Shown here piece after piece: positions 14,243 through 61,519 of a stretch of DNA of 64,000 nucleotides (its first letter is position 1; the number at the start of each line of letters is the position of its first letter). A model generated the notes under the pieces. The model saw only the letters and a list, made by a program, of their open reading frames with translations. It made no database searches and was not told the DNA's origin. Origin of the DNA: Octopus vulgaris (lineage: Eukaryota). The translations under genes were made by a program, and so were the position numbers. The stretch lies in contig OX597814.1 in assembly GCA_951406725.2 (NCBI GenBank), forward strand, positions 126,046,001 through 126,110,000, given 5' to 3'.

Positions 14243-14690
14243 AATGAACTGTGAACTTATTTCCTTATTTCTTTACTCTCTACTCTTCTGTTTCATCACT
14301 AATTTTCTGCAAATTTTCCATGTCTAAATCTTTTATCTGACTATTTCTATATCTAGATCTATCATATGTTCTCTACTTGTCTCTGATGACAGAATACCCC
14401 ATATTCAGGCATACTTGCCTATCACTTGGAATATCCCAGAAACAGCTGTAAGATCTCAACTAATTTTAAAATAATATAAAATAATGTATATGACTTGAGA
14501 TGCCTGTAATGCCTTGGCATTTGTTGTCTTCTTTCACAAATATATATCTGCTAAATCGGAAACCTAAAATGGATCCATAGCTCCTGTCTTGGTTATGAGC
14601 TTGAAACCCTGATAATCTATTACAGCACTTACACAGCATACCTATTCATTTAGATCACCAGTGAACTAAACCCACATATTCTATATTGTA
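14243..14690 (+). mobile_element. ORF-less hammerhead-bearing repeat, family A, copy 1 (Penelope-derived / retrozyme-like)
   Basis: Colinear similarity to ~39131-39485 (atgaactgtgaact ... hammerhead core ... atgccttggc ... tttagatcaccagtgaactaaacc); flanked by microsatellites. Confidence 0.75.
14379..14454 (+). ncRNA. Type I hammerhead ribozyme motif (family A)
   Basis: gtct-CTGATGA-[49-nt stem II]-GAAA-c-agct-g-TA-agat; stem I gtct/agat (one G.U pair), palindromic stem III, GUA cleavage triplet. Confidence 0.8.
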
Positions 14691-14769: not shown

Positions 14770-15650
14770 CAAATGGGCTGATTAAAATCATGACCAGTTC
14801 AATGTTGATAAGTTCCAAGCACTCCCCTATTGACCCACAAACAGACTACAATCTACATAGGACCATGGGGTAGTGCAATCCCAGAGTTAGAATCGGATAC
14901 TTGACCTGGAATCCATACGAGCAGTGATGCAGCATTGCATGTGCATATCGCCAGGATGGCAAAACTGTGCAGGCGAGCAGCTAGATGGATCCTTAGGTCA
15001 TTCAAAACCAGAAATAAGGATACCTTGCTACTTCTATAGAGGACATTTGTCCTCAGTCGCCTGGATTACTGCTCCTATCTGTGGTCACCATAGAGCATCA
15101 AATTAATGGAAGAACTTGAGGCAATCCAGCACCACTACACAAACAAGATTGACTCAGTGAAACAGATGAGCTACTGGGAGAAGTTTCAAGAATTGAAGCT
15201 CTACTCCCTGAAGAGAAGGCAAGAAAGGTATGCAGTGATATATATATGGAAGATCCCAGAAGCTCTAACTCCCAACTCTGGAATTAAAAGCTATAACAAC
15301 CTCCAAACTGGATGGCACTGCATAATACCAAAGATAAAGTCTTCTTCATCACAGATAAGGACTCAGTATTGCAACAGCCTGGGTTTCAGAGGACCAAAAC
15401 TGTTTAACATTCTGCCAATGAACCCAAGAGATCTGTATAGGGGTGGAACCATTCAAAAAGCTGAGGGACAAAATTCTATCTGAAATCCCAGATGAGCCCA
15501 TATCACAGCAGAAGGCAGAAATAAGACCAGCTTCATCCAACTTGCTTCTTCACCAAGAACAGTACCAAAAGGAGACCCAAAAACACTTAAAGGCAGTGCT
15601 CCAGCATGGCCCCAGCCTCAGGTTGAAGCGAGTAAAAGAATAAAAGAATA
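14770..15650 (+). mobile_element. 5'-truncated CR1-like LINE, 3' end of ORF2 plus tail
   Basis: EELEAIQHHYTNKIDSVKQMSYWEKFQELKLYSLKRRQERYAVIYIWKI ... SLGFRGPKLFNILP; tail aaggcagtgctccagcatggcc...gtaaaagaataaaagaata. Confidence 0.88.
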
Positions 15651-15718
15651 CATATGTATGTATGTCTGTATACATATATGTATGTATGTATGTATGTATG
15701 TATATATGCATATACATA

Positions 15719-15749
<31 letters not shown>

Positions 15750-16116
15750 TGATAAAAACGATAAGATAACAAAAGAAAGAAAGAGACCTTAATATTATGT
15801 AAATAGAGGAATTTATCTGTAAATGTAATATGTGACAATTATTCGGTAACCAAGATAAAACTCCGAGTTTCGGATGCCGAGGTGGAAATCCACGCCACCA
15901 TCTCTTCAGTTATCCGCCCATTGGAAAAACGGTATGAAAAATTACCGTTATACAAAGGGAAATTACTGTGTTATTGACCGCTATTAAAACAAAAGAGCTA
16001 TTCGAATGACCGCTAAGTAAGGTAAGGGGGTAAAAAGTTCATAGTATTCGCGTAAGCACGCCTGTTCATACCTAAACATGCGCACTCGCACACCCACGTG
16101 CGTATGTATACATTCA
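15750..16116 (-). mobile_element. ORF-less hammerhead-bearing repeat, family B (CpG-retaining, probably young)
   Basis: Begins at a (TA)n tract, has unusually many CpGs for this window and contains a complete hammerhead motif related to 49521-49570. Confidence 0.65.
15854..15914 (-). ncRNA. Type I hammerhead ribozyme motif (family B), complete
   Basis: Minus strand gataa-CTGAAGA-gatg...gtgg attt ccac...catc c-GAAA-ctcggag-TT-ttatc; 5-bp stem I gataa/ttatc, GUU cleavage triplet. Confidence 0.85.
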
Positions 16117-16521
16117 TTCACCAAGAACAGTACCAAAGGCTATGCTCAGCCTTTATAACCACAATAACAGCATGCTTCTTCATTTCTTGAGTTAGCTGAA
16201 GGTCTGCCATTATTATTTTCTGAAAGAAAGATTATACGGAGTTATCAAAAAATGCAGCAATGACCCAAATAAGAATAGAAAAAGTCTTTTACGTTTCAAA
16301 ATGGACACAGAAAAAATAAGGAGAGAAAAAATGTATGTAGTGGCTAACGATCTATCATATATATATGTGTGTGTGTATAAAGTGAGAAAGAGAGATGTAC
16401 ATACATAAATATATACTTGCAGGTGAACACATACATATACATATATATAATAAGAAATTATTATTAAGTCTTTAAGAAAAAGCAGATTAGCTGACCGCAC
16501 ATGCAGTCATATATTATTATT

Positions 16522-24654: not shown

Positions 24655-24950
24655 AACACCGGTGCCATGTAAAAGTACTAGCACCACATAAAAGCACCCA
24701 TGCAGCGATATGTAAAAGACCCATGCAATGCCACATAAAAGCACCCATGCAGCGATATGTAAAAGACCCATGCAATGCCACATAAAAGCACCCAGCACAC
24801 TTTGTAAAGTGGTTCATATTAGGAAGGGCATCCAGCCATAGAAACCATGTCAAATCAGACTGGAGTCTGGTACAGCTCCCCAACTTGCCAGCTCTGGTCA
24901 AACCATCAAAACCATGCCAGCATGGACAACAGATGTTAAATGATGATGAG
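24655..24950 (+). mobile_element. SINE-like repeat (family S4) with internal tandem expansion
   Basis: taggaagggcatccagcc.tagaaacc...ccagcatgga...gttaaatgatgatg; internal 47-bp unit repeated about 2.4 times. Confidence 0.85.
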
Positions 24951-39130: not shown

Positions 39131-39485
39131 GATGAACTGTGAACTTTATTCTCCTGCCTGTATTCTTCCATTTTATTCTTTATAAACTGTGAACTTTGAT
39201 ACATACTCACCTTGTCTCTGATGACAGAGTACCCAGTGTATGGAGATGCTAGCCTATCACTTGGGATATCCCAGAAACAGCTGTAAGACTTCAAATTCAT
39301 CTTATCCTAATTAAATTATTCCAAATGATTTCAGATACTCATCATGCCTTGGCTTTTGTTGTCCTTTCCCCTCTAATATATTATATACCTGCTAATACAG
39401 ATCCCTAACAGATGACCAATTATAGCACTTACTTAGCATACCCATTCGTTTAGATCACCAGTGAACTAAACCTCTCATATTCTTT
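39131..39485 (+). mobile_element. ORF-less hammerhead-bearing repeat, family A, copy 2
   Basis: Homologous to 14243-14690; ends at a (TA)n tract; may extend upstream to ~39030. Confidence 0.75.
39214..39289 (+). ncRNA. Type I hammerhead ribozyme motif (family A)
   Basis: gtct-CTGATGA-[49 nt]-GAAA-c-agct-g-TA-agac; perfect 4-bp stem I gtct/agac. Confidence 0.82.
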
Positions 39486-41804: not shown

Positions 41805-42405
41805 TTGATAAGTTTATAACAGATCACTGTAATAATAAATTTTCTAACTGATCACAGTTATAATTATGTTATATAACTGATCGCTATTATAATAAATCCT
41901 ATAGTTCATCATAACAATAATAAGTTTTGTAATTAATCTTTATAATAATATGTTAATTGAACTGATCACTGTAAGTTTTATAACTGAAAATAAATTATAT
42001 AATTGATTGCTAATATAATAAGTTTTGTAACCAATCACTGGAATAATAGTTTTAGAAGTGATTGATTACAGTAATGATGATGTTACATAAATGAATAATG
42101 TATTAGTGTTATATAACTGGTCACTATAATAATAAGTTTTATAACTGATCACTTTAATAAGTTTTGTAATTGATCTTAGTAATAATAAATTATTTCACTG
42201 ATTTCTGTAATATTAATGGTATGTATCTGATCACTGTTATGATAAGTTGTATAACTAATCACTATCACAATAATGTTCTATAACTATCACTATAATAAGT
42301 TATATGATGGTTTATTGAAATATTGTTATATAGCCAATGACTGTTATTAAAAGTTCTGTAGATGATCATTATAAAACATGTTCAACAACTAATCATTATA
42401 ATAAT
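41805..42405. repeat. Degenerate AT-rich minisatellite, ~27-29-bp unit (aataataagttttataactgatcactrt)
   Basis: Recurrent ataactgatcact / aataagtt motifs at near-regular spacing. Confidence 0.85.
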
Positions 42406-48471: not shown

Positions 48472-48690
48472 GTTCAATTACTGATCACTTCAATAACTAA
48501 TTACTATAATAAAACTGATTTCAATAACCAATCACTATAATTAGTCCAATAACCAACAATTATAATTAGTTCAATAACCAATCCCTATAAATAGTTCAAT
48601 AACCAGTCACTATAAGTTTAACAACCAATCACTGTAATAAGTTCAATAATCAATCACTGTAATAAGACCAATAACCAATCATTATAATCC
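48472..48690. repeat. Degenerate minisatellite, ~24-25-bp unit (aataaccaatcactataattagttc)
   Basis: About 8 consecutive imperfect units. Confidence 0.88.
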
Positions 48691-49404: not shown

Positions 49405-49520
49405 TAGGTTAGGAAGGGCATCCAGCTGTAGAAACCATGCCAAATCAGACTGGAACTTAGTGCAGCTTTCCAGCTTATCAGCTCCAGTCAAACCATCTAA
49501 CTTATGCCAGCATGGAGAAT
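49405..49520 (+). mobile_element. Partial S4 repeat
   Basis: ttaggaagggcatccagctgtagaaaccatgccaaatcagactgg ... gccagcatggag. Confidence 0.82.
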
Positions 49521-49570
49521 GAGTTTCGGATGTCGGGGCAGAAACCTGCACCGGCATCTCTTCAGTTATC
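49521..49570 (-). ncRNA. Truncated hammerhead motif (family B); cleavage site and stem I 3' arm lost
   Basis: Minus strand gataa-CTGAAGA-gatgccggt gcag gttt ctgc cccgacatc c-GAAA-ctc, then a junction to S4 sequence. Confidence 0.75.
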
Positions 49571-61425: not shown

Positions 61426-61515
61426 AGTTCTATATACTTCTCTGTTTATTTGTCATCACTGCAGTTTGTCAGTTCTATATACTTCTCTGTTTATTTGTCA
61501 TCACTGCAGTTTGTC
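61426..61515. repeat. Exact 45-bp tandem duplication
   Basis: agttctatatacttctctgtttatttgtcatcactgcagtttgtc twice. Confidence 0.95.
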
Positions 61516-61519
61516 ATAT

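Follow-up and report, generated by a model that had tools for sequence, protein, structure and literature searches.

Hammerhead ribozymes have been described in Penelope-like elements (PLEs), where their role is stated to be unclear (PMC8557442). The PLE hammerheads reported by Cervera and de la Pena have a helix I of 4-5 bp, a long helix II with one unpaired nucleotide at its base, and a palindromic helix III; they are located in pseudo-LTRs, mostly in solo truncated copies and with inverted neighbours, and those with a palindromic helix III cleave weakly and as dimers (PMC4209133; PMC6765202). In the anole PLE, reverse transcription starts at two internal sites on an uncut template, and the protein-assisted hammerhead is dispensable for insertion in vitro (PMC11167929). 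Naiad PLEs, for their part, thrive without hammerheads (PMC8557442). All 26 Hydra-clade rows in File S2 of PMC8557442 read CUGA in the core. A natural viroid hammerhead with C in place of U at core position 4 (U4C) is reported to have lower activity in vitro yet to support infectivity (PMC3088659, its ref. 30).

Here we analysed a hammerhead motif on the minus strand of a 64-kb stretch of the Octopus vulgaris genome (hereafter the window), together with its relatives in the same genome and in metagenomes. The motif very probably belongs to the 3' end of an ORF-less, truncated copy of a Hydra-clade PLE, which would have been pasted in uncut and is predicted to be a weak cutter acting only as a dimer. 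The youngest subfamily of the same element carries U4C, a contrast that lies outside the coordinates originally flagged.

The initial annotation had read minus-strand positions 15914-15854 as a complete type I hammerhead with all core letters present, a GUU cleavage triplet, a perfect 5-bp stem I and a cut predicted at 15859/15858, and our reading of the sequence bears out each of these points (stem I pairs GAUAA at 15914-15910 with UUAUC at 15858-15854; Table 1). The letters follow the core rule C3 U4 G5 A6 N7 G8 A9 / G12 A13 A14 / A15.1-U16.1 / H17, with one extra nucleotide before G12. Stem II had been given as 31 nt; the hairpin is there, and its real length is 30 nt, made up of three paired blocks (4+3+4 bp) separated by two 1x1 mismatches, and an unpaired C precedes GAAA. 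Stem III, noted earlier as near-palindromic and suited to dimer pairing, has a predicted duplex energy of -9.7 kcal/mol, consistent with published PLE hammerheads. The pair A15.1-U16.1 also belongs to it and its loop is a single nucleotide, which corrects the earlier outline, and because of this loop it is unable to close fully as a monomer. The motif is the sole complete type I descriptor match within the window; none of 100 dinucleotide shuffles yields a strict hammerhead match, and under the loose descriptor the shuffles average 0.08. Rfam returned no hammerhead at the gathering score, nor among 25 matches up to E 10. A match in the Rfam library is no part of the biochemical definition of a hammerhead.

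Table 1. Features of the window discussed in the text (strand as read; positions are those of the window)
Feature	Position	Strand	Basis or remark
Type I hammerhead, PLE type, dimer-dependent by prediction	15854..15914	-	predicted cut 15859/15858
Stem I 5' strand, 5 bp with 15858-15854	15910..15914	-	among 40 distinct rows, first pair G-C in 25, A-U in 4
Core C3-U4-G5-A6-A7-G8-A9 (CUGAAGA)	15903..15909	-	position 4 = 15908, C in youngest subfamily
Stem II, 4+3+4 bp, two 1x1 mismatches, AUUU loop	15873..15902	-	both-side changes at 6/11 pairs
Extra pyrimidine between stem II and G12 (or bulge beside G10.1-C11.1 pair)	15872	-	in 30/30 aligned copies; by eye 28 C, 2 U
G12-A13-A14	15871-15869	-	sequence reading
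Stem III ACUC-G-GAGU, near-palindrome, 1-nt loop; predicted intermolecular helix	15860..15868	-	duplex energy
U17	15859	-	sequence reading; predicted cut 15859/15858
Stem I 3' strand UUAUC	15858-15854	-	sequence reading
5'-truncated 3' end (3' UTR + pseudo-LTR, long-tail form) of Hydra-clade PLE, 373 nt	15750..16122	-	ends 109 nt past cut site
(TA)n/(CA)n/(TATG)n microsatellite, inferred insertion target	15649..15749	.	Hydra PLEs prefer (TA)n
Short piece of another interspersed repeat, tail into microsatellite	15570..15650	+	matches 2 other window places, 5 other loci
21-nt exact direct repeat, copy 1	15549..15569	+	likely target-site duplication of SINE-like insertion
21-nt exact direct repeat, copy 2	16117..16137	+	first 6 nt overlap element's truncated 5' junction, likely microhomology
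Second, older-type copy of same hammerhead family, broken in stem III by another repeat	49520..49570	-	sequence/descriptor search
Second hammerhead-like family	14380-14453, 39215-39288	+	pattern matches
Second hammerhead-like family, partial	27881	-	partial match

Other repeats lie in the window as well. A second hammerhead-like family, with 20 exact pattern matches genome-wide and 2 in the window, has a CUGAUGA core, a long irregular stem II, the perfect palindrome ACAGCUGU and a 3-bp stem I. Short tandem arrays with periods of 25, 28, 47 and 45 nt occur at 48520-48688, 41813-42298, 24684-24794 and 61426-61516, respectively, and we saw no link between them and the hammerhead.

When positions 15780-16110 were searched against the octopus genome itself (2.8 Gb in 227 contigs), 2,917 first-look candidates were obtained and 40 were scored; among these best 40 of 2,917, full-length matches are 88-95% identical, the best other copy being at 95%. 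The unit they share runs from 16122 to 15750 and then into (TA)n; a partial copy in inverted orientation often lies upstream of it. At least 5 of the 29 other loci run upstream into an endonuclease frame (L003, L004, L008, L011 and L023 in our numbering), and at locus L056 a 3' end of the window type (92% over 380 nt) is joined to a frame that is 86% identical over 388 aa to the protein of the young copies described below. A search with the frame, in which the best 150 of 25,547 candidates were scored, gave about 110 of equal score, with open frames of up to about 717 codons. The model of the 708-aa protein (pLDDT 85.9) has a telomerase reverse transcriptase (RT) as its top structural match (Z 16.8, rmsd 2.9, 258 aligned), and the model of its C-terminal 153 aa matches GIY-YIG nucleases: I-TevI at Z 8.9 (rmsd 2.3, 90 aligned), EndoII at 7.3 and UvrC at 6.0. 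Pfam gave no informative family for the ORF or for 23 aligned members, sequence searches against solved structures gave no significant match for the protein, and Foldseek gave no match at E <=0.001 for the endonuclease model, though GIY-YIG chains topped its ranking.

Sister copies of the window copy, though not the window copy itself, have the single ORF with telomerase-like RT and C-terminal GIY-YIG domain of the endonuclease-bearing (EN+) PLEs. The family shows PLE arrangements (partial-tandem and inverted 5'-truncated copies, pseudo-LTRs, an optional tail), and one locus holds four head-to-tail units with a period of 2,579-2,585 nt plus an inverted pair. A unit below 3 kb, insertion at (TA)n and the hammerhead agree with the Hydra clade, as do the motifs found in the protein: RWK, DKT (for DKG), a CxCx5C linker, and CxxC and CxH around a conserved E and N. 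The Neptune clade (CX2-5CxxC linker, DKG, CCHH) was considered and dropped because of the CxCx5C linker and the DKT motif. The host element is almost certainly a Hydra-clade PLE, its clade being placed by these motifs and by a by-eye likeness to Hydra-1_Obim. Beside one copy of the family lies an RT fragment with a YRDD motif from a more distant PLE family (L021:2251-3033, plus strand). In the older subfamily (L055, L056) the 3' UTR extends at least about 740 nt further upstream than the part retained in the window, and in the young subfamily (L043) the shared pseudo-LTR segment begins about 140-170 nt after the stop codon.

Hydra-1_Obim is similar in 28 of its first 44 residues by eye, in its unit of less than 3 kb, single ORF, GIY-YIG domain, motifs, (TA)n and 3' hammerhead (PMC8557442), but three of four 9-residue motifs and the 16-nt hammerhead word of the present family are absent from the supplement of that paper. 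The hammerhead given there for Hydra-1_Obim has other stems and an extra G on the 5' side, whereas in the present family the additional nucleotide sits 3', stem II is longer and U4C marks the youngest copies; the window family is therefore related but distinct. Its ACUC-N-GAGU occurs in 5 of the 26 Hydra rows of File S2 (PMC8557442). Among the hammerheads of PMC4209133, the bulge is described at the 5' end of helix II, as against the 3' end here, a 4-bp palindromic helix III, like the one here, is found in a variant class, and the core covariation described is U3-A8 rather than U4C. The PAc element of Anolis likewise has two insertion endpoints beyond its hammerhead, which set off a tail, and an AT-rich target, but it belongs to another clade (Poseidon), its ORF starts inside stem II, whereas the long ORF here starts 211 nt past the cut, and its cleavage is protein-assisted, as may also be the case here (PMC11167929). 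The core change of the viroid hammerhead is the same as in the youngest subfamily; there it is a variant, and here it makes up the majority of genomic matches of a retroelement (PMC3088659).

The window copy is 5'-truncated inside the 3' UTR, and tblastn found no ORF piece of the PLE family anywhere in the window. Youth had been proposed for this element from its CpGs, and CpG is indeed enriched (observed/expected 1.39 over 15770-16110 vs 0.19 for the whole window). However, at 10 of 322 sites the copy departs from the letter most frequent among its 29 nearest relatives (3.1%; the median is 5.05% in this 30-copy set, which was chosen by likeness to the window copy) and has lost 3 of 18 CpGs, and the young ORF-bearing copies are far closer to each other. 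It is thus not among the youngest, and its CpG richness taken together with its divergence and CpG loss makes "fairly recent" the fitting description. The microsatellite adjoining the end of the element matches the (TA)n preference known for Hydra PLEs. A 21-nt exact direct repeat (200 shuffles gave no shared word longer than 12 nt) encloses this microsatellite, the PLE piece and the repeat piece at 15570..15650, which we take to be SINE-like. In the simplest history, the SINE-like piece would have inserted first, with the duplication, and the PLE would then have entered its microsatellite tail, with its 5' end joined by 6 nt of microhomology. At 15094-15570 on the plus strand is a decayed frame that resembles the C-terminal end of a LINE ORF2, with the 21-nt duplicated target at its end.

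A second subfamily is far younger. Pairwise differences among seven of its ORF-intact copies amount to 1-16 of 2,151 nt, and an eighth differs by 59-66; 717-codon frames and tandem arrays of 2.58 kb are seen at loci such as L043, L045-L049 and L179-L180. Their hammerhead has CCGA for CUGA, U for the extra C before GAAA, A in loop III, and more stem II mismatches. When the genome was searched with a pattern varying only at position 4, U was found in 2,347 matches, C in 3,814 and purines in 72 scattered ones, with none in reversed controls; the exact 61-mer of the window type occurs 21 times and that of the youngest type 2,228 times. The young subfamily is likely recently or still active. To our knowledge, the U4C variant is rare among viroids. 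At L040:1081-1241, CCGA-lineage flanks accompany a U at position 4, perhaps a reversion by CpG deamination, and some CUGA matches may be such revertants.

For an outgroup we turned to 78 related metagenome loci, of which 65 were usable (13 with <100 nt downstream were excluded). Hammerheads were called in 37 of the 65 (33 distinct: 31 CUGA, and 2 UUGA with A8), against 1 of 65 in the reverse-strand control. A relaxed whole-locus rescan of the 28 loci without a call added 16 motifs, all CUGA; a weak UAGA match inside an ORF was judged to be chance. U4 is present in each of these 33 distinct Hydra-type motifs, which come from other organisms, and by this comparison of sequences U4 is read as the ancestral state. 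A 3'-only extra nucleotide is the best reading in none of the 33, 17 being flush and 16 having a 1x1 mismatch at the stem II base. Metagenome contigs L075 and L114 hold Hydra-type hammerheads with the U3-A8 core covariation. U4C is predicted to weaken cutting in the youngest copies. The mostly open-access literature that we covered contains no report of this PLE family or of U4C in a PLE, and the work of Lunse, Weinberg and Breaker, with its supplements, may already list U4C or 3'-bulge PLE hammerheads.

Folding predictions bear on what the window motif could do. Its minimum free energy has a z of -0.61, and the active junction is not the predicted fold, being disfavoured because A13/A14 can pair with U17/U1.1. 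The active monomer has a predicted probability of 1.5e-4, in an energy model that leaves non-canonical core contacts and protein help outside, and the two-strand fold gives -36.1 kcal/mol for the active dimer vs -43.9 for an inactive duplex that contains the same A13/A14 with U17/U1.1 pairing, energies that ignore core contacts. Cleavage of the window copy would probably be weak and dimer-requiring, and we lean, with some reserve, towards its RNA cleaving detectably as a dimer in vitro. A survey for transcription found 75-92% of the young unit's words in 20 of 23 sequencing runs, none recorded as RNA, so that it is evidence neither way. For contigs from four of these runs over 15760-16120, no pile-up of ends is among the features listed, and 15908 is absent among the differences listed; contigs cannot show ends, strand, level or the transcribed subfamily. 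One contig (depth ~16, from a run that may or may not be RNA) breaks off at 15844 and goes on in other letters, presumably a template-switch cDNA adapter; perhaps an RNA 5' end lies at 15844, 14 nt downstream of the cut site, which may be a pseudo-LTR start site.

Where copies end relative to the cut site is informative about the template. Among 40 CUGA copies, the microsatellite begins 30-60 nt past the cut in 18 and 95-125 nt past it in 12, in none before 25 nt, and 7 have none within 160 nt; among 36 motifs in long loci the corresponding numbers are 12 at 30-60 nt, 14 at 95-125 nt and 10 with none within 160 nt. The window copy meets its microsatellite at 109 nt. Since the copies contain the whole hammerhead plus sequence beyond it, their template would have been uncut at that site, or religated; endpoints about 40 or 105 nt past the cut make uncut RNA the likely template. 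We propose that tandem units of ~2.58 kb would be transcribed from a promoter in the pseudo-LTR, and that the protein would nick (TA)n DNA, with reverse transcription starting at either of two sites ~40 or 105 nt beyond the hammerhead. A pair of hammerheads, on a single read-through RNA or on separate RNAs, may join through ACUC-N-GAGU, possibly with help from protein, and the dimer would slowly cut multimers to unit length, slow cutting leaving uncut template for insertion. The window copy would have been pasted by the family's RT-endonuclease into a (TA)n run from an uncut transcript. The two past-cut ends, together with the published weakness of dimeric PLE hammerheads, lead us to infer slow, dimer-dependent processing of multimers from tandem loci, with no role for the solo copy.

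Other accounts of the window copy can be set against this one. Were the 373-nt piece a non-autonomous retrozyme instead of a truncated PLE, its shortness, its hammerhead and its high copy number would be expected, and animal retrozymes have been proposed to derive from PLE pseudo-LTRs (bioRxiv 10.64898/2026.07.22.740005). However, the short tandem hammerhead units without coding sequence that mark non-LTR retrozymes are not found in these copies: there is no short head-to-tail array in the window or at the 30 nearest loci, extra pieces are mostly inverted, 5' ends vary and run on into 3' UTR and ORF, and the tandem period is the full 2.58-kb coding unit. We consider a retrozyme most improbable. 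Scarcely more probable is the view that the window copy works as a host-relevant ribozyme and cuts a host transcript that crosses it on the minus strand. The canonical core and perfect stem I speak for such activity, as does its place among the less diverged of the likeness-chosen set, and a partner strand could come in trans from any of thousands of copies; but the copy stands alone and is truncated, the one further family member within the window is a broken copy at a distance of 33.6 kb, the monomer fold is predicted to be unfavourable, divergence resembles neutral decay including CpG loss, and no host gene was identified across the site. In a biological sense, then, the designation of this motif as the best candidate for an active ribozyme is not supported, as it is a solo, 5'-truncated copy without ORF or nearby partner, and the newest-amplified subfamily has a CCGA core. 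That the locus acts in vivo we regard as very doubtful; the truncated PLE copy is most likely a silent passenger, any RNA from which would cleave in vitro only as a dimer.

A further question is whether the hammerhead of the whole family is a decaying relic, with cleavage unneeded, U4 already lost, and the remaining fold kept for some other task, for instance as a promoter or a protein-binding site. In the youngest lineage U4C is accompanied by the C-to-U change before GAAA and more stem II mismatches, yet this lineage has reached 2,228 identical 61-mers; insertions reach past the cut site; and, besides the success of Naiad, hammerhead mutants of the anole element are reported not to affect insertion in vitro, nor do RNA-seq ends reported there fall at the cut site (PMC11167929). 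Against this stand the patterns of variation. In 40 distinct CUGA rows (one per locus from the first pattern matches, neighbouring rows skipped), 93.9% of cells are paired and 7 of 20 pairs change on both sides, none of them in helix III, the search pattern having fixed the core and the stem II base, so that those columns carry no information. Seven double-change pairs were reached in 11 of 500 shuffles, and slid controls gave at most 2; this covariation is modest support, inflated by descent through transitions among related rows. When the old subfamily is compared with the young one, U4C itself is the sole difference at the 36 constrained positions, vs 27 differences at the 119 free ones (p 0.005, which becomes 0.009 if one indel is scored as a single change and 0.028 if columns with gaps are left out), and inside the CCGA lineage shared variants also spare constrained positions (1/36 vs 21/119, p 0.028), in tests that are small (8, 23 and 10 rows) and whose position classes were set after the alignment had been seen. 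The CCGA-lineage variants include N7 and distal stem II, which are tolerant positions, the loop III change separates old from young, purines at position 4 are few, and the viroid precedent couples U4C with lowered activity and retained infectivity (PMC3088659). From these alignments, a maintained, probably slower ribozyme appears to fit the data better than free decay, and we judge a mere relic unlikely, if less so than either account of the window copy weighed above. More tentatively, and with the odds still against it, the sweep of the U4C lineage to thousands of near-identical copies may reflect a ribozyme tuned down, not discarded, since slow cutting leaves more uncut multimeric template.

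The flagged locus is in itself ordinary, as hammerheads in PLE pseudo-LTRs have been published, including those of the Hydra clade and of an octopus family, and the window copy is a single truncated member among thousands. Descriptor searches with CUGA fixed would miss 3,814 of the 6,233 pattern matches of this family. Two subfamilies of one element differ at a core position, and the non-canonical one has amplified most recently with its fold conserved. If a tuned-down ribozyme is the true explanation, the old CUGA and young CCGA copies would constitute a natural allelic series for hammerhead function in PLEs.
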